NCBI GenBank assembly: GCA_016181765.1
Contig: JACOYR010000006.1
Span: 31,664-95,663, forward strand
DNA: 64,000 nucleotides
DNA from: Parcubacteria group bacterium
GTDB taxonomy: Bacteria; Patescibacteriota; Patescibacteriia; UBA2169
Direction: 5' to 3'
The position numbers and the translations under genes are program-made. The notes beneath the pieces were generated by a model. The model searched no databases, was not told the origin of the DNA, and worked only from the letters and a program-made list of their open reading frames with translations. The stretch's first letter is position 1. Each line of letters starts with the position of its first letter. Shown one piece after another: positions 7,851 to 52,587 of this stretch.

Positions 7851-8627
7851 ATGAAAACATCTTTTAATGAAAAACAGTTAGAAATTTTGACAGAGCTTGG
7901 ACTTAGTAAAATCCAGGCGATTTTGTATTTAACCTCGCTAAAACACGGAATATTATCTGTTTTGGAATTATCTAAAATCACCAAGATAAATAGACAACAA
8001 ATTTACTCAGAAGCAGAAAAATTAGTTGATCTTGGAATTTACGAGCTGACGCGGAAGCAAGGAAGAAAATATATCCCCGCAAATCCAGCGAAATTAGTAA
8101 AAGTTGGAAAGAAAAAAATTGATGAGACCGAAAAAATTTTAACAAAGTTGTCGGTAATCTTGCCTGAATTTGAGGCTTTTTCAGAACCAAAGAAAAATAA
8201 AGTTGTTGTGAAATATTTTCAGGGTTTGCCAAAAATTAAAGAAACGTATGAAGAAGAATTGGCGGCTTCTAAAAATACAGAAGTTTTATCTCTTGCCGGT
8301 TCAATTGACAATATTTTTGAATTTTTCACTGAATCATACTGGGATAAGTGGAATAAAAAATTTATAAAACATGACTCAAGAAGTCGGATGCTAGTCCACA
8401 ATTCTGATATTGCTCGCAAGACCGCCGAGGATGACAAACGATACAAACGAGAAACTCGGTGGCTTCAGGATTTTCCTCTTAAAGTAAATATTGATGTTTT
8501 CAATAATACTGTTCTTATTGTCTCTTTTCACGACGAAATTGCTATTTGGATTGAAAGCCATATGTTGGCACAATCCTATCGCATAATGTTTAATACTCTT
8601 TGGGAAGTCGCAAAACCCTTCAAATAA
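7851..8627 (+). CDS. TrmB-like HTH transcriptional regulator (low-GC)
   Basis: N-terminal winged-helix pattern LTELGLSKIQAILYLTSLKHGILSVLELSKITKINRQQIYSEAEKLVDLGIYE; about 33% GC versus about 60% flanks. Confidence 0.5.
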   Translation: MKTSFNEKQLEILTELGLSKIQAILYLTSLKHGILSVLELSKITKINRQQIYSEAEKLVDLGIYELTRKQGRKYIPANPAKLVKVGKKKIDETEKILTKLSVILPEFEAFSEPKKNKVVVKYFQGLPKIKETYEEELAASKNTEVLSLAGSIDNIFEFFTESYWDKWNKKFIKHDSRSRMLVHNSDIARKTAEDDKRYKRETRWLQDFPLKVNIDVFNNTVLIVSFHDEIAIWIESHMLAQSYRIMFNTLWEVAKPFK

Positions 8628-8791
8628 TAAAAATGTTGTAAAGAAACTTACAACTTTTATACCTTAAATTTCCTTGTATTTACTGACTTATTTGGCGCCT
8701 TCATGGCGTTTTTTCTTTTTTTATTACGCGAATTGGCTAATCGTGAAAAAATCATAGTGAGCAGTACAAACCGCAAACAAAGGAGATTGTT

Positions 8792-8992
8792 ATGCCGCCA
8801 AGTGGATTCAGTGAGAAAGCCGTGAAGGGCGCCCTTGTCTTCGTGCAAAGTTGTTACGAAGACCTGCTGGAGGAAGTTCGCTCCGGAAAGCACGCAAGCT
8901 ACGAGGAGGGTATCGAGTTCGAGATCACACAGATCGAGAAAGCCCTCATAAAGCTCCACATCGACGCCGAGGGGAACCTCGTCGAGCGATAA
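8792..8992 (+). CDS. small hypothetical protein (66 aa)
   Basis: Strong SD aaaggagattgtt before ATG; terminator-like hairpin plus T-run at about 9010-9045. Confidence 0.4.
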   Translation: MPPSGFSEKAVKGALVFVQSCYEDLLEEVRSGKHASYEEGIEFEITQIEKALIKLHIDAEGNLVER

Positions 8993-9121
8993 ATTCAACA
9001 GACCCGAGCAAGTCTTAAAACTGCTCTTTTTTATTTGTCTAAATTTTCATACGGGTTGGCGAGGTTTTATTGATGGACATGTTTAAGGTATGCTACCATA
9101 CATGCATAATCACAAACTCCT

Positions 9122-9856
9122 ATGAAACAAAAAATGCTGTCAGCCATATTTATCCTGCTCTTCCCGCTCTTCGGCGTTGCGTACTACTACAAGCTGCTGG
9201 GAGAAAGCACGGACATTGATAAGACGTTCCTGACCCTCTCAACATTCCTATTCGCGCTCTTTACCGGATTTTTTATTTCACGCCAAGCCAGCCGGTATGG
9301 TGAGATACGCAGGCTGACCGCTGATTTTGACGGCAACATGTCCGGCATCTACCGCTTGTTCCAGCATCTGGGAAAAGACGCGCAACACGCGTCCGGAGGC
9401 ATCATCAAAGAGTACTACAAAAAAATAACCAAAAACGGCTGGGACTACTCATTCACCCATAAAACAACCACCATCACCGACCTGCATGCTCTGCTTGAAA
9501 AAACCACCGACAAAAACACGGGCGGCAGCATGGCAAGCATGGCCGCATCCCGGATTATAGTAGGCCTGCAGGAACAGCAAAAAACGAGAAAAAATCTGGT
9601 TACCCTGCGCGAAGAAAGGATTCCGGGATTCCAATGGATGCTCATCTGCATCCTTACCGCAATTCTCGTGCTCACGGTTTCCGCGATCCCGTCAGCGGCG
9701 ATTGTGCTCGGCTCCGCCGTAAAGGCCGCGTTCATCGTATCCATCCTGGTGGTGGTGGCCCTGCTGAAACAACTAGACAATCTTACGCTGTTTACGGGCG
9801 CTATCGGCGAACACTCGGCGCGGGATGTGGTTGAAATTATTGAGGGGAAAAAATAA
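9122..9856 (+). CDS. hypothetical membrane protein (DUF4239-like topology)
   Basis: Two N-terminal and two C-terminal hydrophobic helices flanking a soluble middle. Confidence 0.45.
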   Translation: MKQKMLSAIFILLFPLFGVAYYYKLLGESTDIDKTFLTLSTFLFALFTGFFISRQASRYGEIRRLTADFDGNMSGIYRLFQHLGKDAQHASGGIIKEYYKKITKNGWDYSFTHKTTTITDLHALLEKTTDKNTGGSMASMAASRIIVGLQEQQKTRKNLVTLREERIPGFQWMLICILTAILVLTVSAIPSAAIVLGSAVKAAFIVSILVVVALLKQLDNLTLFTGAIGEHSARDVVEIIEGKK

Positions 9857-9866
9857 TCGCAGTCTT

Positions 9867-10619
9867 ATGCTCGCCTACGCAATCATCGCAACACTCGCCG
9901 TAAGCCTCATCTCGCTCACCGGCATCCTGCTCCTCGCAAAGGAGGCGCACGCAAAAACATGGATCAAGAGGCTCATCGGGCTTGCCATCGGAACCCTGCT
10001 CGGAGCCGTGTTTTTTGACCTCCTGCCCGAAGCCATGGAATCGTTTGATGAGCCGCACACCGCATCTCTGATTATTCTTGCGGCAATCGTGGGGTTCTTT
10101 GCCATAGAAAAAGCAATCCACTACCACCACTGCATGTGCGATGACGAGGAAAAAGGGCACCGCAAGACCCACCTCATCATAAACAACCTCATCGGCGACG
10201 GACTGCACAATTTTGTTGACGGCACTATTATCGCGAGCGCGTTCCTGGTGGATGTACGGCTCGGCATCAGCGCCACGATCGCGGTTGCCTTGCATGAAAT
10301 TCCGCAGGAAGTTGCCGACTTCTCCATTCTGGTGTATGCCGGAATGTCGCGGCTCAAAGCAGTGCTCTACAATCTGCTCTTCGGCCTGACGAGCGTGCTC
10401 GGCGCAATCCTGGTGTTCGTCTTTTCCGACTCCGTTGAGAGCCTGGTGCCCATACTCCTTGCGGTTGCAACCGGAAACTTCCTGTACCTTGCCATGGCAG
10501 ATCTGGTTCCTGAACTGCACCACGAGCAGAACCCCCGTAAAGTCTGGATGCAGCTGGTGTGGGTTGGTTTGGGAATTCTGATCTTGTATGCCATCGGCCA
10601 AGTGGCGGGGAACGAGTAA
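9867..10619 (+). CDS. zupT: ZIP family zinc transporter (ZupT-like)
   Basis: HNFVDG and HEIPQE metal-binding motifs; 8 predicted TM segments. Confidence 0.8.
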   Translation: MLAYAIIATLAVSLISLTGILLLAKEAHAKTWIKRLIGLAIGTLLGAVFFDLLPEAMESFDEPHTASLIILAAIVGFFAIEKAIHYHHCMCDDEEKGHRKTHLIINNLIGDGLHNFVDGTIIASAFLVDVRLGISATIAVALHEIPQEVADFSILVYAGMSRLKAVLYNLLFGLTSVLGAILVFVFSDSVESLVPILLAVATGNFLYLAMADLVPELHHEQNPRKVWMQLVWVGLGILILYAIGQVAGNE

Positions 10620-22457: not shown

Positions 22458-23720
22458 ATGCCGTACCTCCTGCCCATCGTAGCGCTGCTCGCACTGCTGG
22501 TTCCCGAACCCGCAGCAGCAGACTCCCTGCTCCGAATCTGCACCGCAACCGGCAACTGCGGGGTGTGCGATGTGGTGGCAACCGCAGTCACGCTCGGCAA
22601 GTGGCTCATTACCGGATCAGCCGGACTAGCCTTGGTGGTGATTGTGTGGGCATCAGTCGGGCTCGCAACGAGCGCCGGAAACCCGGAAAAAATAGGGGAA
22701 GCCAAAAAACAGGTCGTGTGGTCCGTGCTCGGAGTGGGATTGGTGTTCGCGGCGTTCTATTTGGTGATGTGGATTGTCATTGCGTTCGCAAACCCCTCCA
22801 ACCAGTTCAAGTACGCAAAAAATCCGTCCGATGCCGCGGTTGCCGAAACCGGAGGCTTGGCCGGTTTTCTGGGCGGGACCGCATGGTGGAACCTGTGCAG
22901 CGAGGCTGATTTGCGCGCAAACGGCGACCGAGCAAGGTCCGCGGACAATATAACCGCGGACTGCAAGTACTGGGGAGACGGCACGCCCTGCAAGACAAAC
23001 CGCAAGAGCATCTGCTTGAGCGGAACGTGCACGCCAGTCGGAGACAGCAAAGTTCAGGCGAGCATAACCGCGCTCGGCGGATACCCCCTTCCAACAGACC
23101 CGTCCGCGTGCGACTATGTGGCCGCGGTTGACCGCGTGTTTGAAAACTACTCGTGCCAGCCGAATGCCGCATGCAATCCGGAAAAAATAGAAAAGGGGTT
23201 CTGCCCTCCCGGAGGCACAGTGTGCTGCGAGCCGTCCACCTTCACCCCGCGGGTGCGGCCAACCGCGGCCCCAGAGGTTTTGGTTCCAACGGCGCCCGGA
23301 GTACCCGGAGCTGGAGGTGATGAAATGGCAATCCGCACGACACTCGGAAATGCGGGCATAGAAGTCAATAAAGCCCCTTGTCCGGACATCCTTACCTCAA
23401 CCGACTGCACGTCAGTCGCCGGACTGTCGCAGAGCACGGTTAATAAACTGATTGAAGCCCACACCACATACAACGGGCGCATCTACATTACCGGAGGGAC
23501 CGAGCGAGGCCCCCATGCCCAAAACACCACGCACGGCAATCAGAACGTGGTTGATATCCGCAACAAGCAAGAGGCGCGAGATGCCCTGGATCAGATGGGG
23601 CTCGTGCGCATGACCTCGTTTTCAAACGGCTATGCGAGGGGCTCCAACTGGTACATCTGCGACACCAACGGCCAGGCTGTAAGCTGTGGTACTGCAAGCC
23701 ACTTACACGTAGAATTTTAA
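22458..23720 (+). CDS. pilin-like (TrbC/VirB2-type) N-terminal domain fused to Cys-rich linker and C-terminal M15/VanY-like zinc peptidase-like domain
   Basis: N-terminus ...VTLGKWLITGSAGLALVVIVWASVGLATSAGNPEKIGEAKKQVVWSVLGVGLVFAAFYLV resembles the downstream pilin paralogs; C-terminus has ...ITGGTERGPHAQNTTHGNQNVVDI and terminal ASHLHVEF (SxHxxGxAxD-like and HxH motifs). Confidence 0.5.
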   Translation: MPYLLPIVALLALLVPEPAAADSLLRICTATGNCGVCDVVATAVTLGKWLITGSAGLALVVIVWASVGLATSAGNPEKIGEAKKQVVWSVLGVGLVFAAFYLVMWIVIAFANPSNQFKYAKNPSDAAVAETGGLAGFLGGTAWWNLCSEADLRANGDRARSADNITADCKYWGDGTPCKTNRKSICLSGTCTPVGDSKVQASITALGGYPLPTDPSACDYVAAVDRVFENYSCQPNAACNPEKIEKGFCPPGGTVCCEPSTFTPRVRPTAAPEVLVPTAPGVPGAGGDEMAIRTTLGNAGIEVNKAPCPDILTSTDCTSVAGLSQSTVNKLIEAHTTYNGRIYITGGTERGPHAQNTTHGNQNVVDIRNKQEARDALDQMGLVRMTSFSNGYARGSNWYICDTNGQAVSCGTASHLHVEF

Positions 23721-23737
23721 CCAACCCTAGAGAGCCT

Positions 23738-24088
23738 ATGATCACAAAACTATTCTTCACCAGCCTCGCTATCCTGCTCCCCGCGGCACAAGCCCTGGCA
23801 CAGAACAGCTACGGCAGTGCCGATCTCAATCCGCTCGGAAGAATTGAGGGCCCGCAGGAGCTCTATGGCCGCTTTTTGCAATTTTTCCTCGGGTTCGTTG
23901 GGGTCGGCGCGCTCGGGTACTTCATCATCGGCGGCATTATACTCTTGATGTCCCAAGGGAACCCTGAAAAGGTAAAAATGGGCAAGGACACGCTGGTCTG
24001 GGCAATCATCGGCATGTTCGTGGCGTTCGCAAGCTACATCATCCTGCGGTTCGTGCTGGAGATCATCATCACCCCGACCGGCGCGTAG
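23738..24088 (+). CDS. pilin-like small membrane protein P1 (TrbC/VirB2-type architecture)
   Basis: Signal peptide, short variable region, then two-TM core ...GGIILLMSQGNPEKVKMGKDTLVWAIIGMFVAFASYII. Confidence 0.6.
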   Translation: MITKLFFTSLAILLPAAQALAQNSYGSADLNPLGRIEGPQELYGRFLQFFLGFVGVGALGYFIIGGIILLMSQGNPEKVKMGKDTLVWAIIGMFVAFASYIILRFVLEIIITPTGA

Positions 24089-24174
24089 TTATCAACAGAG
24101 TGATTTTGCAAAAAATGCCGCAGTGTTGTATAATTCATGCATCATAAACCAATTATTTATTAAACTTTGATACT

Positions 24175-24696
24175 ATGATTACGCGAACAACAAAACTGGC
24201 ATGGAAAATGATTTTGAGCGGGTTGTTTTCCGCAAGCTTCCTGGCGCTCGCGCTTGTTCCGGCTACAACGTCTGCCGCCGTAGGTGACGACTGCACGGAC
24301 ACCAAATCGTGCCCCACCGGGGGAGAAGTGTGCATCCGCAACGCTAATGACGGAACTCCCGGAGATGCAACTGATGCCTTTTCTTTCGTCTGCACCACCC
24401 CGCAGGCCACCCAGTATGGTTTAGGCGAGTTTACTGATGTCGGTCTCGGCCAGACCCAGGACCTCAAGGGCTCTATCGCGAACATCATCAACATCATCCT
24501 CGGATTCCTCGGGATTGTGGCGGTCATCATCATCCTGGCCGGCGGATTCAAGTGGATGACAGCCGGAGGCAACGAGGACAAGGTCGGCGAATCGCGGCAG
24601 ATGATCATCCAGGGCATCATCGGATTGGTGGTGGTGTTTGCGGCCTGGGCAATCGCGAGCTTCGTGGTTTCCAACCTCCAATCAGCAACCACCTAG
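24175..24696 (+). CDS. pilin-like protein P2 with Cys-rich N-terminal ectodomain
   Basis: Conserved core IINIILGFLGIVAVIIILAGGFKWMTAGGNEDKVGESRQMIIQGIIGLVVVFAAWAIASFVV. Confidence 0.65.
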   Translation: MITRTTKLAWKMILSGLFSASFLALALVPATTSAAVGDDCTDTKSCPTGGEVCIRNANDGTPGDATDAFSFVCTTPQATQYGLGEFTDVGLGQTQDLKGSIANIINIILGFLGIVAVIIILAGGFKWMTAGGNEDKVGESRQMIIQGIIGLVVVFAAWAIASFVVSNLQSATT

Positions 24697-24727
24697 CCGC
24701 CTCCCCCCTCTCTCCTGCCTATGCACA

Positions 24728-24763
24728 ACCCCCGCCAAATCAGCGGGGGTTGTTTGTTGCGTC
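24728..24763 (+). terminator. rho-independent terminator after P2
   Basis: caacccccgc-caaatca-gcgggggttg + tttgttg; followed by TGGTATACT box at 24777-24785 before P3. Confidence 0.5.
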
Positions 24764-24814
24764 CAAATCCTGTTTTTGGTATACTATACACACTGTTATT
24801 ATCCACAAAGGTCT

Positions 24815-25528
24815 ATGATGAAAACTATAAGCATTTTGGCGTCTGGGGCCGCATTTTCAATCCTGCTCCTCCTTGCGCCATCGGCAACAAATGCCGCTCC
24901 TGTTGATGAAGATGGGGTCTGTCAGCTTTTTCCGGTTACCGCAGACGAAGCATGCGGGCCGGGTTTGGTATGCGAACAAACGCCGACAAGCGCCGCGGGC
25001 CAAGGAGTGTGTTGTGCGCCGGGGTCAGACAACTGCCGTTTCGGGTTGGGAGAACAATCCACGTTCACAACCCTGGGTTTGGGCAAAAATGATGACCTTA
25101 AGGGGACTCTGGCGACCATTATCAATATAGCGCTCGGGTTCCTTGGCATTATTGCCGTGATTATCGTGATGTTCGGGGGGTTCAAGTGGATGACTGCGGC
25201 TGGAAACGAGGAGCAGGTGGGAGAGGCGCGGAAGCTGATCGTGGGGGGCGTGGTCGGACTGCTGGTGATATTCATGGCATGGGCAATCGCGAGCTTTGTG
25301 GTATTATTACGCCTCGCTATACAACCATATGCACCACACCATGACGCCACGCGCCGTTCAAGCCGCAAAATGCATGCTTGCCACGAGCATGCTGGTTCTG
25401 CTCGCTGTTGCAATCGCGGCACCTTCGTCAACTGGCGCGCAAGTTGCGGATCCCCGGGCTGCGGACCAGCAGTATGGCCTGGGAAGCGCCAGCAGCTTCA
25501 CAAATGTCGGCCTGGGCAAAGAGGATGA
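24815..25528 (+). CDS. pilin-like protein P3; conserved end is at about 25303 but no stop codon follows, so the ORF reads into the next gene in +1 frame
   Basis: Core ...IINIALGFLGIIAVIIVMFGGFKWMTAAGNEEQVGEARKLIVGGVVGLLVIFMAWAIASFVV then non-pilin-like tail; 3' 210 nt nearly identical to P4. Confidence 0.55.
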   Translation: MMKTISILASGAAFSILLLLAPSATNAAPVDEDGVCQLFPVTADEACGPGLVCEQTPTSAAGQGVCCAPGSDNCRFGLGEQSTFTTLGLGKNDDLKGTLATIINIALGFLGIIAVIIVMFGGFKWMTAAGNEEQVGEARKLIVGGVVGLLVIFMAWAIASFVVLLRLAIQPYAPHHDATRRSSRKMHACHEHAGSARCCNRGTFVNWRASCGSPGCGPAVWPGKRQQLHKCRPGQRG

Positions 25529-25757
25529 CCTTAAGGGGACTCTAGCGACCGTCATCAACATAGCGCTCGGGTTCCTTGGCATCATTGCCGTGATTATCGT
25601 GATGTTCGGAGGGTTCAAGTGGATGACTGCGGCAGGCAACGAGGAGCAGGTGGGAGAGGCGCGGAAGCTGATCGTGGGGGGCGTGGTCGGACTGCTGGTG
25701 ATATTCATGGCATGGGCAATCGCGAGCTTTGTGGTAAGCTCCTCGGCTCGGATATGA
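25341..25757 (+). CDS. pilin-like protein P4
   Basis: Signal peptide MTPRAVQAAKCMLATSMLVLLAVAIAAPSSTGA; same core as P3; stop codon TGA lies inside repeat R2. Confidence 0.65.
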   Translation: MTPRAVQAAKCMLATSMLVLLAVAIAAPSSTGAQVADPRAADQQYGLGSASSFTNVGLGKEDDLKGTLATVINIALGFLGIIAVIIVMFGGFKWMTAAGNEEQVGEARKLIVGGVVGLLVIFMAWAIASFVVSSSARI

Positions 25758-25804
25758 AAAAGAATACTTTTTCATATCACTCGCTCTACGTCGCTAATAA
25801 AACA
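25737..25804. repeat. hairpin repeat R2 (copy of R1) between P4 and P5
   Basis: agctcctcggctcgg-gatatgaaaaag-aata-ctttttcatatc-actcgctctacgtcgctaataaaaca; supplies P4 stop and ends 5 nt before P5 ATG. Confidence 0.7.
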
Positions 25805-25809
25805 ATGCT

Positions 25810-26208
25810 ATGCCGATAGTTAAATCGTTTTCCTTAAGAATCAACCTGATCGTCGCGGCGGGCATGCTCGCATTCGCGATTCTCGCGCCGGTTCCGGCGC
25901 TCGCCCAAACCGACCCGTTCGGCGTGGAAGATGCGGCCAGGATCAACGTGGGCGAAGAGCGGGACCTTAAATTTGCCATTGCGAACATCGTGAACGTAGT
26001 ACTCGGATTTTTGGGAATCCTTGCGGTCATCATCATCATGTATGCGGGATTCAAATGGATGACCGCGTCCGGAAACGAAGAGCAGGTGGGCGAAGCCCGA
26101 AAAATGCTCTTGCAGGCGGTCATCGGCTTAATCATCATCATGGGAGCCTGGGTCATTATAAACTTCGTCACCGGAGAATTCGGCAGAGCGGTCCAGCTTG
26201 AAAACTAA
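25810..26208 (+). CDS. pilin-like protein P5
   Basis: Core NIVNVVLGFLGILAVIIIMYAGFKWMTASGNEEQVGEARKMLLQAVIGLIIIMGAWVIINFV. Confidence 0.65.
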   Translation: MPIVKSFSLRINLIVAAGMLAFAILAPVPALAQTDPFGVEDAARINVGEERDLKFAIANIVNVVLGFLGILAVIIIMYAGFKWMTASGNEEQVGEARKMLLQAVIGLIIIMGAWVIINFVTGEFGRAVQLEN

Positions 26209-26236
26209 CCGGCCCCGGGCCGCTTACGCAACACGT

Positions 26237-26905
26237 ATGACCGCACGCCGCACTCTCATCGTAGCACTCCTCGTTTCCGGATTGGCGGGATTCGCGGCAA
26301 GCCCGCACCCGGCATTTGCCCAGCGCAGCGCCGCCGGGGAAAACGCGCTCAATTTTTTGGATGCGACCGCGGAAAAGGGCGGGCTCTCAAGCGGCATCAA
26401 AAACGCGGGATTCAGCAGTGAGGACGCGGTGCTCGGCATTGTGGGCAACATCATCAACGTCATCCTTGGATTCGTGGGAATCATCTTCTTTGTCCAGATG
26501 TTCTACGCGGGCTTCAGGTGGATGTCGTCCGGCGGCAACGAGGAGGTCGTAACCGAAGCCAGGCAGACCATCAAGAGCGCAGTCATCGGCATTGCGGTGG
26601 TGTTTGCCGCGTTCGTGGTTACGAACTTTACCTTGAATCAAATCGCAAGCATCACTGGGCCCACGCGGCCATCCGGGTTGCCCCCTGAAGATGAGAGCTA
26701 TGACCCAAGTTTAGATGCCCCGGGCGGAGACTTAAATTTCGGCGAACTACCTCCGCCGCTTGGGACATGCATCTATCCAAAAAGCGGCGAATGTGATGCC
26801 GGAAACACCGGGTGGACTGACCTGCAAAGTGATGTATCTGAAAATGCTTGCATGACTCTCGCTGCTTCGGCTTGTGGCGACCCTGATTTGCACGACTGGT
26901 ATTAA
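26237..26905 (+). CDS. pilin-like protein P6 with C-terminal Cys-rich tail (alternative start 26198)
   Basis: Signal peptide MTARRTLIVALLVSGLAGFAASPHPAFA; core GFVGIIFFVQMFYAGFRWMSSGGNEEVVTEARQTIKSAVIGIAVVFAAFVV; tail with 5 Cys. Confidence 0.6.
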   Translation: MTARRTLIVALLVSGLAGFAASPHPAFAQRSAAGENALNFLDATAEKGGLSSGIKNAGFSSEDAVLGIVGNIINVILGFVGIIFFVQMFYAGFRWMSSGGNEEVVTEARQTIKSAVIGIAVVFAAFVVTNFTLNQIASITGPTRPSGLPPEDESYDPSLDAPGGDLNFGELPPPLGTCIYPKSGECDAGNTGWTDLQSDVSENACMTLAASACGDPDLHDWY

Positions 26906-26911
26906 TATACT

Positions 26912-27340
26912 ATGAAATACGCCGCTCTAATATCACTATTCTTGGCAACCCTGTCTATAACTCTGTTTTCTTTTCAAGTCGTGGCTCATGCCCAAAATAC
27001 TGATACCAAACTCGCGAGCGCGGTTGGCGATGCCCGTGGAAAACTCAATGCCATTGGCTCAATCACAGGCTTGGGACGGGTTGACGTTTCAACTGACGCT
27101 GGTCTGTACGAAAAAATCGCGGCAGTCATCAATATCCTGCTCGGGTTTGCGGGCGTAATTGCGACCATCTATATAATTGTTGCGGGAATCCAGTGGATTA
27201 CGGCAAGCGGCAATGAGGAACAGGTTACCGAAGCGCGCGGAAACATAAGGAACGCGGTCATCGGCTTGGTGGTTATATTCCTCGCGTTTGTCATCACCAA
27301 TTTCGTCACCAAATCACTCATTGACGTAATCGGCGGCTGA
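26912..27340 (+). CDS. pilin-like protein P7
   Basis: Core INILLGFAGVIATIYIIVAGIQWITASGNEEQVTEARGNIRNAVIGLVVIFLAFVITNFV. Confidence 0.65.
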   Translation: MKYAALISLFLATLSITLFSFQVVAHAQNTDTKLASAVGDARGKLNAIGSITGLGRVDVSTDAGLYEKIAAVINILLGFAGVIATIYIIVAGIQWITASGNEEQVTEARGNIRNAVIGLVVIFLAFVITNFVTKSLIDVIGG

Positions 27341-27356
27341 CGCTAAAAACTTCCCT

Positions 27357-27989
27357 ATGAAAATCTTTCTCACAGCCATTGCCTTAACAGGCCTCCTCGC
27401 AGCCGCGGCTCCGGCGCACGCGGTATCCGGCGTCAACCAGCTCAAGAACAACCTCGGCATCATCGGAACCGAAACCGGGCTCGGCACCCAAGGGGACTCA
27501 AGTCTTCCGGAAAAAATCGCGGCAATTGTGAACATAGCGCTCGGGTTTGTAGCGCTCATCGGGGTGATCATGATCATCTACGCGGGCTTTAAGTGGATGA
27601 CAGCCGGCGGCAACGAGGAGCAAATAAAAGAAGCCAAAGGCCATATCCGCAATGCGGTCATCGGCATTGTCATTATTATGCTCGCGTTCGTAATTGTCAA
27701 TTTTACCGTGAACAAGCTCTCGGAAACCGTGGGTGTGGGCGAGGGCGGAGGAGGAGGGGGAAACGTCATCAGCGGACTTTGTGAATTTGATGTTGGCGGC
27801 GGGCTTATGTTCTGCGTACCTCGGTCAGAATCAGAGTGCCAAACCCTTGGGGGAACCTATAACGCGCAGTGCGAAAAGCAGACTTACTGCAGGTGCGCAA
27901 GCGGATGCGGGGCAAACAACTGCCTTATTATGACCGAAAATGCATGCGAAAGGAAGAGTGGAGCGCTTAGCGACGCGCCCTGTAATTGA
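27357..27989 (+). CDS. pilin-like protein P8 with Gly-rich linker and 10-Cys C-terminal module
   Basis: Core IVNIALGFVALIGVIMIIYAGFKWMTAGGNEEQIKEAKGHIRNAVIGIVIIMLAFVIVNF; GEGGGGGGN linker; CEFDVGGGLMFCVPRSESECQTLGGTYNAQCEKQTYCRCASGCGANNCLIMTENACE. Confidence 0.65.
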   Translation: MKIFLTAIALTGLLAAAAPAHAVSGVNQLKNNLGIIGTETGLGTQGDSSLPEKIAAIVNIALGFVALIGVIMIIYAGFKWMTAGGNEEQIKEAKGHIRNAVIGIVIIMLAFVIVNFTVNKLSETVGVGEGGGGGGNVISGLCEFDVGGGLMFCVPRSESECQTLGGTYNAQCEKQTYCRCASGCGANNCLIMTENACERKSGALSDAPCN

Positions 27990-28043: not shown

Positions 28044-28098
28044 TGACTTTTGTATACACATTGTGTATACTGACCGCATCATCAATCACATCAATCCC

Positions 28099-28431
28099 AT
28101 GATTAAAGACACCACCATCAACATCAGGACAAACGCCAAAATCAAAAAACGAGTAGCCCAAAAAGCGCGCGAGCGAGGCCTTACGCTTTCGGGACTCACG
28201 AATCTGTTCTTCCAGAATTTTGTGCAGAACGAACAAACGCTCATAGACAAGCTTGAGGAGCGCATGTTTGATAACGCCCTGCAGTCAGCGCCCATTAGAG
28301 AGAAGCTTACCCGATCGGATAGCGCGCTGGAAAAAAGACTCGCTGAAGACGCAAAAGATTTGGCGCGGATGCATTTTGATGATCTGCCGTCTGAAGACGA
28401 ATGGGTTGCCATACAGCCATCCATCAATTAA
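28099..28431 (+). CDS. ribbon-helix-helix antitoxin (RelB/DinJ/ParD-like)
   Basis: INIRTNAKIKKRVAQKARERGLTLSGLTNLFFQNFV RHH pattern; upstream of MazF-like gene; ORF-track start 28063 is actually the TGTATACT box. Confidence 0.5.
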   Translation: MIKDTTINIRTNAKIKKRVAQKARERGLTLSGLTNLFFQNFVQNEQTLIDKLEERMFDNALQSAPIREKLTRSDSALEKRLAEDAKDLARMHFDDLPSEDEWVAIQPSIN

Positions 28432-28434
28432 CCT

Positions 28435-28773
28435 ATGGATTTCCACCAAGGCGACATAGCGCTCGCAAACCTCAATCCGACCAGAGGGCACGAGCAAGCG
28501 GGCTTTAGGCCTGTGTTGATCATGCAAGCCAACATCCTCAACAAGCACCTAAGCACGGTCATCATAGCGCCAATCACCACAAATCTTGGTGCCCGAGGAA
28601 AGCTTACCACCTATCTCCTAGCTAAGGATGTATCAGGGCTTGACTATGATTCGGTCGTGCTCGTCCATCAAATACGCGCGCTTGACAAACAGCGATTAGA
28701 GAAAAAAATAACGAGCATATCTCACGATGAATTCCAAAAGATAAGAGAGAAACTGCTGTTTGTGTTCGGTTGA
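28435..28773 (+). CDS. MazF/PemK family endoribonuclease toxin
   Basis: GDIALANLNPTRGHEQAGFRPVLIMQANILNKHLSTVIIAPITTN...VVLVHQIRALDKQRL. Confidence 0.75.
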   Translation: MDFHQGDIALANLNPTRGHEQAGFRPVLIMQANILNKHLSTVIIAPITTNLGARGKLTTYLLAKDVSGLDYDSVVLVHQIRALDKQRLEKKITSISHDEFQKIREKLLFVFG

Positions 28774-49879: not shown

Positions 49880-50317
49880 TTATGTTTCTTTTTTTGGTTT
49901 TTGGACCGGGGCAGGTTCATTCTCCCCTGCCTCAACCTCGGTCGCGGACACCGAACAATGGCCGTGCAGCACTGCGCCGGGCTCAATGGAGAGTATTTTG
50001 GTAATGATGTCTCCGGTAATTTTTGCGGATCCGCCGAGCTCAAGGCTGTCTTTGACGGTCACATTTCCGGCAATTTCTCCGCGCACAATTGCGCTCGCAG
50101 ACTCCACATTTGCTTTAATCTTAGCCCCTTCTTCCACTTTTAGGTTGCCTTTGGTCTTGAGGCTCCCATTCACAATCCCCTGCACCAGCACATCCCCGTC
50201 GCTCTTAAAATCTCCCTCAACTTTAACGCTCGGCCCAATAATGGTCTCCACCTCCCCCTCTTTCATTTCAAAGCTTTTTTGTTTTTCTCCCTTGTCGCGT
50301 CCGTTAAACATTGCCAT
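49880..50317 (-). CDS. bactofilin
   Basis: Beta-helical repeat pattern ...IIGPSVKVEGDFKSDGDVLVQGIVNGSLKTKGNLKVEEGAKIKANVESASAIVRGEIAGNVTV. Confidence 0.75.
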   Translation of the reverse strand: MAMFNGRDKGEKQKSFEMKEGEVETIIGPSVKVEGDFKSDGDVLVQGIVNGSLKTKGNLKVEEGAKIKANVESASAIVRGEIAGNVTVKDSLELGGSAKITGDIITKILSIEPGAVLHGHCSVSATEVEAGENEPAPVQKPKKET

Positions 50318-50451
50318 AATAGTGCCCCTTTTAATGATTATAGGTTCCTATAGTATACTAAAATGGGCATGCATTGTAAAAATAACGCTATTACGGTATA
50401 ATTCGCCTATATTTTGCTCGGATGCGGAACCCCAAACCCCAACTCTGACGC

Positions 50452-50528
50452 GGGCCCTTAGCTCAGCTGGCTAGAGCGCTTCCATGGCATGGAAGAGGCC
50501 ACCGGTTCAAATCCGGTAGGGTCCACCA
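50452..50528 (+). tRNA. tRNA-Ala (anticodon GGC)
   Basis: G3:U70 pair present; anticodon stem cttcc/ggaag, loop atggcat; CCA encoded; preceded by aactctgacgc. Confidence 0.85.
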
Positions 50529-50609
50529 TAATTTGTCAAAATTGTCAACTTTTTCATGATGGGTTGAACAAAATTTACATGGGTTGAACAAAAATTATGA
50601 ATCTGACGC

Positions 50610-50685
50610 GTCCTTATAGCTCAATTGGATAGAGCAGTGGCGTCCTAAGCCATTGATCCAGGTTCAAGTCCTGGTAAGGACACCA
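50610..50685 (+). tRNA. tRNA-Arg (anticodon CCT)
   Basis: Acceptor gtcctta/taaggac, anticodon loop gtcctaa, T-arm ccagg-ttcaagt-cctgg; preceded by aatctgacgc. Confidence 0.8.
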
Positions 50686-50731
50686 GACAAATTGTTCAGT
50701 GTTAAACTTTAAAAATACCTCTTTCTTACAA

Positions 50732-50847
50732 ATTTTCTCTTGGGCTCACCGCAGGCGAGTTAAGAGAAAATTTGAGAGGAGTAGGCGTGCGGAGGGTGTA
50801 GTCAGTGCTGTAAGGCACAGAAGAAACCCGCAGCGCGACTACGACGA
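50732..50847 (+). ncRNA. candidate structured RNA element (copy B) immediately 5' of tRNA-Ala(CGC)
   Basis: attttctc-ttgggctcaccgcaggcgagttaa-gagaaaat-ttgagaggagtaggcg...gcgactacgacga then tRNA. Confidence 0.45.
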
Positions 50848-50923
50848 GGGCCTGTAGCTCAGTTGGTAGAGCGCCACATTCGCATTGTGGAGGCCAGGAG
50901 TTCAAATCTCCTCAGGTCCACCA
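50848..50923 (+). tRNA. tRNA-Ala (anticodon CGC)
   Basis: G3:U70 pair; anticodon stem ccaca/tgtgg, loop ttcgcat; CCA encoded. Confidence 0.85.
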
Positions 50924-51318
50924 GACAAGTATTGTTTAAAAAATCCTGACAACATTTGTTGTTAATAGTATGTATTTGAGTTATTCACATGTCCTGTGGA
51001 TTTCCTGTGAGAAAGGCTAATATTAGCCAAATTAAATCTATGTGAATAACTTATCACTTATTTGTTTATTTATTGTGCATATACGCTTATCATCACTTGT
51101 CAGGAAAAATCCTGACAATTTTTATACACACATACTCAATAAGATGCGAATAAATAAATAAGAGTTATTAGTGTTATATTTTTATAAATAAACACTAGTG
51201 TTAGCCTTAAATTTTACTTATTCACCTATTCCACAGTATTATAGTTATTAATATTAGACAGTATTCTAAAATGAACATATAATAAATCATGCTTTGTCTT
51301 TAAATAAACACTTAAAAT
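50924..51318. promoter_or_regulatory. about 400-bp AT-rich (about 28% GC) non-coding region with multiple direct and inverted repeats upstream of trxA
   Basis: aaaatcctgacaa twice; palindrome ggctaatattagcc at about 51013 and again at about 51640 between trxA and trxB; inverted gagttattcaca/tgtgaataactt. Confidence 0.4.
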
Positions 51319-51642
51319 ATGCCAGCGCTAGAACTTACGGACCAAAATTTTAATCAAGAGGTTGAGCAAGTTAAGGGAGTGGTCCTTGTAGATTTTTGGG
51401 CGCCGTGGTGCGGGCCGTGCAAAATCCAGGGCCCCATAATTGATGAAATTGCGGATCAGGCCAAAGATGTAAAAATAACAAAACTCAATGTAGATGAAAA
51501 CCAGGAGTCCGGGTCAAAATATGGAGTTATGAGTATTCCAACAATCATTATATTCAAAGACGGCAAACCAATAGAAATATTAGTTGGGTTACATAAAAAA
51601 GACGATATACAGGCAAAGATTGATATAGTAAAAAATAGCTAA
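51319..51642 (+). CDS. trxA: thioredoxin
   Basis: WCGPCK active site. Confidence 0.85.
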   Translation: MPALELTDQNFNQEVEQVKGVVLVDFWAPWCGPCKIQGPIIDEIADQAKDVKITKLNVDENQESGSKYGVMSIPTIIIFKDGKPIEILVGLHKKDDIQAKIDIVKNS

Positions 51643-51660
51643 TATTAGCCAAAATGTAGT

Positions 51661-52587
51661 ATGGCTAATATATCAAAACTCATTATTATTGGTTCGGGAA
51701 ACGCGGGATATACTGCAGCGATTTATGCTTCACGCGCCCAGCTTAAGCCGATTTTGTTTACCGGGTTTGAGCCGGGCGGCCAGCTCTCACTCACCACTGA
51801 TGTGGAAAACTTCCCCGGGTTCCCAGAAGGCATTCAGGGGCCGGAACTAGTTCAAAGGATGCGCAAACAAGCAGAGCGGTTTAGCACTAACATTATTGAT
51901 AAGGCGGTTGATGGGGTTGATTTTAAGAGCCGCCCGTTTTCGGCGTGGGCTGGGGAAGACCAGTACCAATCAGACGCAGTGATTATTGCAACCGGAGCCT
52001 CGGCCAAGTGGCTCGGCCTTCCTTCGGAGCAGCGTTTGCGCGGCAAGGGCGTATCAAGCTGCGCCACGTGCGATGGGTTTTTCTTTAGGGGCAAGGACGT
52101 GGTGGTGGTCGGCGGCGGCGATGTATCTTTGCAGGATAGTATATTTCTCACTAAGTTTGTTGCGGGCATCACAGTGCTGGTGCGCAAAGACTCATTCCGC
52201 GCGAGCACGTACATGAAGGAAAAAGCAGAGAAAAATCCGAAGATAAAATTTTTAATGAATACCGAAGTTGTTGAGGTGCTTGGAGAAAATTCCGTGTCCG
52301 GCGTGAAAGTTAAAAATAACAAGACCAACGAGGAGTCGGAGATCCTATGCCAGGGCGTGTTTGTGGCAATCGGCCACGCGCCGAACACTGATATTTTTAA
52401 GGGCCAGCTTGAGCTTGATATAAAAGGCTATGTGGTGCTCAAAAACGGCATGATGACGAGCGTCCCGGGCGTGTTTGCGGCAGGAGACGTGCATGACCAC
52501 GAATACCGCCAGGCAATAACCGCGGCAGGGGCGGGCTGCGCCGCTGAAATAGACGCAGAGCGCTGGTTGGAAAAACAAGAACCATAA
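51661..52587 (+). CDS. trxB: thioredoxin-disulfide reductase
   Basis: CATCDG redox-active disulfide, FAD/NAD Rossmann motifs GSGNAGYTAAIYA and VVGGGD. Confidence 0.85.
   Translation: MANISKLIIIGSGNAGYTAAIYASRAQLKPILFTGFEPGGQLSLTTDVENFPGFPEGIQGPELVQRMRKQAERFSTNIIDKAVDGVDFKSRPFSAWAGEDQYQSDAVIIATGASAKWLGLPSEQRLRGKGVSSCATCDGFFFRGKDVVVVGGGDVSLQDSIFLTKFVAGITVLVRKDSFRASTYMKEKAEKNPKIKFLMNTEVVEVLGENSVSGVKVKNNKTNEESEILCQGVFVAIGHAPNTDIFKGQLELDIKGYVVLKNGMMTSVPGVFAAGDVHDHEYRQAITAAGAGCAAEIDAERWLEKQEP

Follow-up and report, generated by a model that had tools for sequence, protein, structure and literature searches.

The tandem array of nine VirB2-like pilin genes described here lies in a 64-kb window, the whole stretch of DNA that was analysed, from an uncultured groundwater Parcubacteria metagenome-assembled genome (MAG; NCBI label 'Parcubacteria group bacterium'). 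Members 4 and 5 of the array, P3 and P4, combine unrelated N-terminal halves with a nearly identical pilin core. Comparison with related sequences argues that this core is under concerted evolution, with gene conversion well supported. In the assembly, P3 also lacks a stop codon behind the core. We regard conversion of the core together with an assembly error at the stop, with moderate confidence, as the best explanation of the locus.

Concerted evolution of the P3 and P4 core

The following features define the repeat and the two genes that carry it.

25064 to 25303, + strand: R1, the P3 pilin core; 25205-25303 is identical to R2
25497 to 25736, + strand: R2, the P4 pilin core; 25638-25736 is identical to R1
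24815 to 25528, + strand: P3 as assembled, with a signal peptide and Cys-rich variable part (to about 25063), the core (to 25303) and an out-of-frame extension (25304-25528)
25329 to 25757, + strand: P4 (NCBI HYT31_04795, MBI2051084.1, 142 aa), with a signal peptide, a short variable part, the core and the tail SSSARI before its stop

Positions 25092-25303 and 25525-25736 match at 204 of 212 nt (96.2%), at an offset of 433, and homology of lower identity extends back to about 25064/25080 (224/240, 93%). The near-identical repeat between adjacent pilin paralogs with unrelated 5' halves, which an earlier note on this DNA had reported at more than 95% identity, is therefore real. Its first copy stands as given there; the second copy begins at 25525, not 25524. 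The completely identical tract is shorter than the roughly 120 nt claimed, comprising the last 99 nt (25205-25303 / 25638-25736), and the last 120 nt agree at 118 positions. All eight differences sit in the first 113 nt (p ~0.007 under an even spread) and fall into seven codons, six of them synonymous and one changing I to V. The repeat encodes the two-helix pilin core, in which 70 of 71 residues are identical between P3 and P4. The remaining array members reach only 60-72% against the same segment, so the similarity of the two cores is far beyond the family background. Upstream of the core the two proteins are unrelated, and BLASTP aligns only 20 aa (40% match) at the start of the pilin domain.

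The MAG was built from MEGAHIT assemblies of each filter, followed by IDBA-UD scaffolding (PMC7906910). In independent Logan assemblies (k=31) of SRR12113420-33, the locus is found at 99.96-100% identity to the window. A related groundwater population, at 80-90% nucleotide identity, served as the comparison lineage, and the core comparison covers 224 nt of the P3 and P4 copies of the window and its relatives.

Both genes are present in the related population. Its P3 orthologs (P0004, P0185-P0187) are 171-172 aa long and its P4 orthologs (P0002, P0189) 145-146 aa; all end in AIASFVVSNLQSATVA, optionally with a further T, before the stop, and these C-terminal ends read ...SNLQSATVA(T). The N-terminal halves of P3 and P4 form the same two distinct types as in the window, with orthologs ~87-90% identical. 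One related contig (L014, the reverse complement of JGI Ga0209541_10313655) runs from the P3 N-terminal part through the core and a VA-stop end into the start of the spacer. Another (L012) continues from the core end and VA-stop through a 42-nt spacer with TGTTATAAT to P4, which ends VAT-stop, and on to P5, the next paralog. The two contigs have 114 identical nt in common, which supports the tandem P3-P4 order in the relatives. Together, the ortholog types and this order indicate that P3 and P4, with their different 5' halves, are older than the split of the two populations.

The cores follow a different pattern from the N-terminal halves. Over the 224 nt, P3 and P4 differ at 10 positions in the window and at 7-11 in the relatives, versus 16-24 between orthologs of the two lineages; paralogous cores within a lineage are thus about twice as similar as orthologous cores between lineages. 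Ten sites carry a base that the two window copies have in common and that none of the related copies has, and no site is P3- or P4-specific across the lineages. The same grouping is visible in the protein, with MFGG...GGVVGL in the two window copies and MYGG...GGVIGL in the two related ones. Concerted evolution is what these shared sites and the excess of paralog over ortholog similarity amount to, and we infer that conversion is the step that homogenised the core.

Partly converted copies are found within populations. The contig L005, from the window's own population, covers P2, the N-terminal half of P3 and the core up to 25207, and its only two differences from the window, at 25201 and 25204, are both of P4 type (A and C). 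It is a mosaic P3 copy. In the relatives, polymorphic bases are common to P3 and P4 copies. L005 ends at 25177+30 and a second contig, L006, at 25150+30, and both 25177 and 25150 are positions of single-nucleotide polymorphisms (SNPs) between R1 and R2. On our understanding of k=31 unitig conventions, on which all arguments from contig ends here depend (L001, L002, L005 and L006), these ends would be the points where the second copy merges in the graph. If so, the SNP at which the identical tract begins varies from sample to sample. Exchange between P3 and P4 looks to be ongoing. The earlier note's proposal of recent gene conversion or recombination is thus borne out by the 10 concerted against zero paralog-specific sites, the 7-11 against 16-24 mismatches and the mosaic.

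In the mechanism that we propose, the variable halves of P3 and P4 would be old and inherited as orthologs, and the core of ~225-260 bp with the first part of the tail would be repeatedly overwritten, copy to copy, by homologous (RecA-type) gene conversion. Each conversion tract would extend up to the 3' end of the repeat, with a 5' limit that varies between tracts; the 3' block would thus be left identical, and the few differences, most of them synonymous, would lie near the 5' edge. Homogenisation of a core by sequence copying is ordinary for tandem gene families.

The missing stop codon and the C-terminal tails

P3 (ATG 24815) has no stop after ...AIASFVV (codon 163, end 25303) and reads through to the TGA at 25526-25528. 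The read-through overlaps P4 (ATG 25329) by 200 nt in another frame. It had been noted before with a length of 75 codons; the extension has 74 sense codons, and the stop-less state is found in this assembly only. No homologue of the extension was found. The P4 tail SSSARI is also non-native and is read from the upstream DNA of P5. In the NCBI annotation the locus tags pass from P2 (HYT31_04790) directly to P4 (HYT31_04795), and P3 is not listed even as a pseudogene. The relevant features are:

25303 to 25304, + strand: junction 1, where the R1 end GTGGTA runs directly into P4 upstream DNA (TTATTACGCC...)
25280 to 25307, + strand: candidate P4 promoter, TGGGCA, 16 nt, TG-n-TATTAT; it spans junction 1 and is a consensus match only
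25736 to 25737, + strand: junction 2, where the window is without the 76 nt carried by four independent contigs, TCCAACCTGCAGAGCGCGACCGTCAGTATAATTCCGCCTTCGCCTGCAGCATAA TAAAGGGCAGTAGCCCTGTGTT, encoding the tail SNLQSATVSIIPPSPAA and a stop
25810 to 26208, + strand: P5, the next pilin paralog, with a Pfam match; used as the anchor to fetch independent contigs

Both copies of the repeat are cut at the same nucleotide, right after GTGGTA. At junction 1, GTGGTA lies 25 nt from the P4 ATG in the window versus 72 nt in L012, and by comparison with the relatives the native tail, the stop and some of the spacer are missing. The candidate promoter corresponds to TGTTATAAT in the P3-P4 spacer of the relatives (L011 and L012).

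At junction 2, four contigs, each from a different run (L001-L004), have 100% identity with the window from 25737 on, for up to 4.1 kb in L001. Between GTGGTA at the repeat end and AGCTCCTCGG at 25737 they carry the 76 nt that the window lacks: codons from TCC AAC CTG to GCA GCA TAA, which encode SNLQSATVSIIPPSPAA and a stop, followed by 22 nt with a small hairpin. A search for the 76 nt throughout the window, where they might have been misplaced, did not find them. On the left side of the locus, L005-L008 differ from the window by 0-2 mismatches. None of the four tail-containing contigs breaks at 25737, although a break would be expected there were a tail-less variant abundant in those samples. 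L001 and L002 both start with exactly 30 nt, GTGGTA plus the first 23 nt of the tail. This start fits a fork after a tail common to two copies, and it ends where the two tails of the relatives diverge (GACCGT|GGC...). In all relatives both genes have stops.

The assembled forms were not recovered elsewhere. No protein like the 236/237-aa P3 is on record, and none with the extension is present among 5.8 billion clusters; P4 (138 and 142 aa) and P3 (236 and 237 aa) gave no match when looked up as exact proteins. Neither window junction, nor the N-terminal part of P4, was seen in independent contigs of this population. Degenerate DNA scans of JGI metagenomes and GTDB genomes for the P4-specific motif DQQYGLGSASSFTNVG returned none, and a scan for the 3' end of the repeat returned a single JGI contig, L014, but no genome. 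Contigs retrieved with the next array gene start inside P5, short of the junction.

The missing P3 stop and the loss of the native P4 tail would lie outside the conversion mechanism. Conversion inside the repeat cannot remove flanking DNA, and the earlier note's view of the stop loss as a footprint of conversion is not supported; L001-L004 carry tail and stop, as do both genes of every relative in the case of the stop. Judging from these contigs, the loss probably goes back to an error made locally, at the 3' edge of the repeat, in assembly or scaffolding. The IDBA-UD scaffolder is known for local errors at contig joins, and contigs end at repeat edges. Both genes would, in the actual genome, probably end ...AIASFVVSNLQSATV... 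with a stop soon after. The earlier note had named a stop-containing P3 end, seen in long reads, as the sign of an assembly problem. This has nearly been found: tail and stop are directly observed for the copy beside P5, and for P3 in this population we infer them, as we do the origin of their loss in assembly.

While the independent contigs favour an error, it is possible that the window is correct and represents a haplotype in which the native tails were really lost, through one short deletion of about 40-47 nt behind R1 and another of 76 nt behind R2. P3 would then be stop-less, probably defective or tail-altered, and overlapping P4, and P4 would have the new tail SSSARI. We consider this unlikely enough to rank clearly behind an error, yet it deserves a hearing. 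The window is contiguous and has no Ns. Similar short motifs stand at the ends of the missing segments (TGTGGTA versus CTGTTATA in L012 and CTGTGTTA in L001), compatible with slippage. The diversity of haplotypes between samples at this locus is real, and tails vary among populations (VA, VAT and VSIIPPSPAA before the stop), which marks the end as evolutionarily labile. Junction 1 also keeps the promoter-like TG-n-TATTAT for P4. The difficulty is that two independent events with exactly the same left breakpoint are needed, an improbable coincidence. Junction 2 has no clean microhomology, all four of the contigs that cross it have the tail, with no branch at 25737 and 100% identity downstream, and no such protein is recorded elsewhere.

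Several of these points weigh against an assembly error, and others add to them. The reading follows from disagreement with independent assemblies, not from a demonstrated mechanism, and the tail-less junctions were not reproduced on paper from plausible MEGAHIT or IDBA-UD behaviour. It is built on assembled contigs, not reads. The SRR121134xx runs are not confirmed as belonging to the BioProject of the MAG, and a text search of the supplements of He et al. 2021 found neither the SRR run numbers nor the HYT31 tag. The window lacks Ns, and with locus haplotypes that clearly differ between samples the MAG could be a real tail-less one. The extended -10 promoter of P4 kept at junction 1 is plausible, as a tolerated natural deletion might leave it. 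The tail of P3 itself has never been seen directly in this population, and its independent contigs are without the P4 N-terminal part.

Two other candidates for the stop-less P3 were set aside. One was an alternative genetic code, by which no stop can be created. The other, programmed frameshifting or fusion of P3 with P4, lacks a slippery site and would yield an extension without a homologue.

The locus carries a caution for annotation. A stop loss at a repeat edge of a short-read MAG that is contradicted by independent assemblies is not to be taken as pseudogenisation or fusion unless reads bear it out.

Possible gain and loss of the P4 unit and the origin of the pair

The two copies of the core are direct repeats, 433 bp apart here and 480 bp in the relatives, and could serve as substrates for unequal crossing-over, by which the P4 unit would be deleted or amplified. 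Some contigs have the expected form. In L003, from the window's population, a core with all P3-type SNPs is joined to the tail and P5 with no fork. In L009, L010 and L013, from three related samples, the P3 N-terminal half, the core and a P4-type tail are joined directly to P5. The same P4-less contigs are also obtainable by graph pruning of a single tandem pair. Repeat-mediated loss or gain of the P4 unit is thus plausible but unproven. The earlier note had suggested that the repeat could drive copy-number or cassette switching; L003, L009, L010, L013 and L011 (described below) fit the suggestion, and these same contigs may be by-products of the assembler.

Three further contigs show unusual structures at this locus. 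In the MEGAHIT contig L011 (ENA ERZ27254754 k141_3057300; 1-621), the ends overlap by exactly 141 nt, the k of the assembler, so that the P4 unit by itself closes into an isolated cycle of 480 bp. This is a loop of the assembly graph, which pruning of a single tandem pair could also produce, or else a sign of tandem amplification of P4. In L017 (ENA ERZ4903185 k141_1328200; 1-532), the P3 N-terminal half and 5' core are fused in frame to a 3' core, tail and terminator of P2 type, after which P3 starts. The arrangement resembles a product of unequal crossing-over between P3 and P2; this contig appears error-laden over its first 40 nt. In L014 (347-1232), unrelated AT-rich DNA of ~900 bp takes the place of P4 behind the P3 ortholog, its stop and the first 21 nt of the P3-P4 spacer. 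This DNA, seen in one related sample, carries a 170-aa open reading frame (ORF) and the start of a small antitoxin-like ORF, and may represent an insertion or a replacement that hit the same hot spot.

Features of programmed switching were looked for. There are no silent cassettes and no inverted repeats, and no recombinase is present among the neighbours scanned. Each gene has its own start codon, P4 has the promoter-like site and the repeats are direct. A site-specific shufflon was dropped as a candidate, since the repeats are direct and no recombinase lies nearby.

A more active role of the array is conceivable. It might be a recombining cassette locus of an episymbiotic bacterium of the candidate phyla radiation (CPR), with the tail-less P3 and P4 as real products and not assembly errors; we hold this to be doubtful. 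Were it true, the varied tracts, the P2/P3/P4 hybrids and the loss or amplification of the P4 unit would produce surface-pilin variation between cells of one population. It would offer a natural route to host-range or immune-evasion variation in a lineage whose arrays are essential but unexplained.

The pair could also have arisen without conversion, by a recent tandem duplication followed by replacement of the 5' half in one copy, or by separate duplications in each lineage. The copies are adjacent and highly identical, and this would be the simplest reading if the window alone were known. Against it, both N-terminal types occur in the same order in a population about 10-15% diverged, which dates P3 and P4 before the split, and the cores nevertheless group by lineage. 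Mosaics and polymorphisms common to P3 and P4 would still need repeated exchange. We therefore consider recent duplication very improbable. Least probable of all, to the point of being nearly dismissed, is that P3 and P4 are alleles of one locus in different strains made tandem by an assembler chimera: the direct joining of a P3-type core to tail and P5 in L003, its counterparts in L009, L010 and L013 from the relatives, and the lack of the P4 N-terminal part in independent contigs of this population would suit alleles, but L012 has an upstream pilin core, stop and spacer before P4, L014 links the same 114 nt to the P3 N-terminal half, and the fork of L001/L002 after a common tail is not expected from alleles that both lead to P5.

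The pilin array, its surroundings and known systems

The complete array comprises the following genes.

22458 to 27989, + strand: nine-gene tandem VirB2-like pilin array (PF18895 T4SS_pilin; all nine above the Pfam gathering threshold)
22458 to 23720, + strand: array gene
23738 to 24088, + strand: array gene
24175 to 24696, + strand: array gene, P2
24815 to 25528, + strand: array gene, P3
25329 to 25757, + strand: array gene, P4
25810 to 26208, + strand: array gene, P5
26237 to 26905, + strand: array gene
26912 to 27340, + strand: array gene
27357 to 27989, + strand: array gene

PF18895 scores are 36.0 bits for P3, over residues 93-162, and 37.0 bits for P4 (cut-off 26.6). The NCBIfam model NF045849 ('pilin-like conjugal transfer protein') reaches its cut-off in three of five tested genes and stays below it in two; P4 scores 43.6 bits (cut-off 40). 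The AlphaFold model of P4 has helices at 7-30 (signal), 64-100 and 105-141, with a hairpin pLDDT of ~90, and the hydropathy profile shows three hydrophobic segments. P4 is accordingly modelled with the architecture of the family, a predicted signal peptide followed by two hydrophobic helices with a short polar loop. All genes of the array would share this plan, in which a variable part peculiar to the gene stands between the signal peptide and the conserved two-helix membrane hairpin, the core. Foldseek against the PDB retrieved only generic helical hairpins, the best being ATP synthase subunit c (E 0.44), and a profile search of PDB sequences with the pilin found nothing relevant.

Three members extend far beyond the pilin core at their C termini (22458-23720, 420 aa; 26237-26905; 27357-27989), and two of these are Cys-rich. 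Going by these extensions, the pilins seem to have a second variable part in their C-terminal tail, and it is probably exposed.

A strong GC-rich hairpin follows P2 (24727-24759, CAACCCCCGC-CAAATCA-GCGGGGGTTG, then TTTGTTG). It is terminator-like, was missed by a consensus terminator scan, and its position is kept in the contigs of the relatives. An AT-rich hairpin with a perfect 12-bp stem lies upstream of P5 (25751-25778, GATATGAAAAAG-AATA-CTTTTTCATATC) and covers the assembled stop codon of P4.

The array is surrounded by purD, purN, murB, a nucleoside triphosphate (NTP) transferase and a solute-binding protein, and by RelB/PemK, YebC, RuvC, tyrosyl-tRNA synthetase (TyrRS) and a penicillin-binding protein (PBP). 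A RelB-like antitoxin (122 aa) and a PemK-family toxin (112 aa) are encoded directly 3' of the array (28063-28773). No VirB4, VirB6 or other type IV secretion system (T4SS) machinery is present in the 64-kb window, whose larger ORFs elsewhere are housekeeping genes. G+C dips to 0.44 at 8001-10000 and to 0.42 at 50001-52000, compared with ~0.55 elsewhere; the second stretch holds a cluster of three tRNA genes (50452-50920).

RecA-dependent conversion of bacterial duplicates is known from tufA/tufB in Salmonella and from rRNA operons, where non-reciprocal exchange leaves the paralogs of one genome more alike than the orthologs of different lineages. The P3/P4 core resembles these cases in the excess of paralog over ortholog similarity and in tract boundaries that appear as blocks of identity. 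It differs in that only the 3' half is homogenised and the 5' halves are unrelated, and in that the copies are adjacent direct repeats, which makes deletion or duplication of a unit possible.

Segmental conversion among clustered pilin paralogs, with mosaics in the population, is also found in the Neisseria pilE/pilS system. There, the pilin belongs to a type IV pilus, the donors are silent, promoterless and 5'-truncated, the variable region is exchanged and an initiator that forms a G-quadruplex (G4) is needed. In contrast, the genes described here are VirB2-like, both look complete and expressed as far as their sequences tell, and it is the conserved core that is exchanged.

The closest relatives of the array are the VirB2-like arrays of Patescibacteria/CPR (PF18895/PF04956), which are widespread in these bacteria. 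A 2025 survey lists 441 of them with 2-11 genes, with a mean within-array amino-acid identity of 25% and a maximum of 54% (PMC12102498). It cites the array of Ca. Southlakia epibionticum ML1 as essential, also covers the array of TM7x, and sets these arrays beside the VirB2 paralogs that Bartonella and Anaplasma carry in tandem (PMC12102498). Bartonella trwL and the Anaplasma phagocytophilum VirB2 paralogs are likewise multiple tandem genes, thought to diversify the pilus surface (PMC12102498); they belong to animal pathogens and have linked T4SS machinery, unlike the array in our window.

The array itself is a typical Patescibacteria VirB2 array, with small tandem pilin genes, nine in this case, of the same domain and with strong divergence outside the core. 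Conversion is well known for bacterial paralogs, and the survey describes neither exchange between array members nor how these arrays evolve (PMC12102498). The present locus adds a pair of members whose core, identical at 70 of 71 residues, is under concerted evolution, and with it evidence for exchange of that core by conversion. It also hints that genes are gained or lost in natural populations through the same repeat, and it is a small and clean case of two array members with a homogenised core and exposed variable parts that stay distinct.

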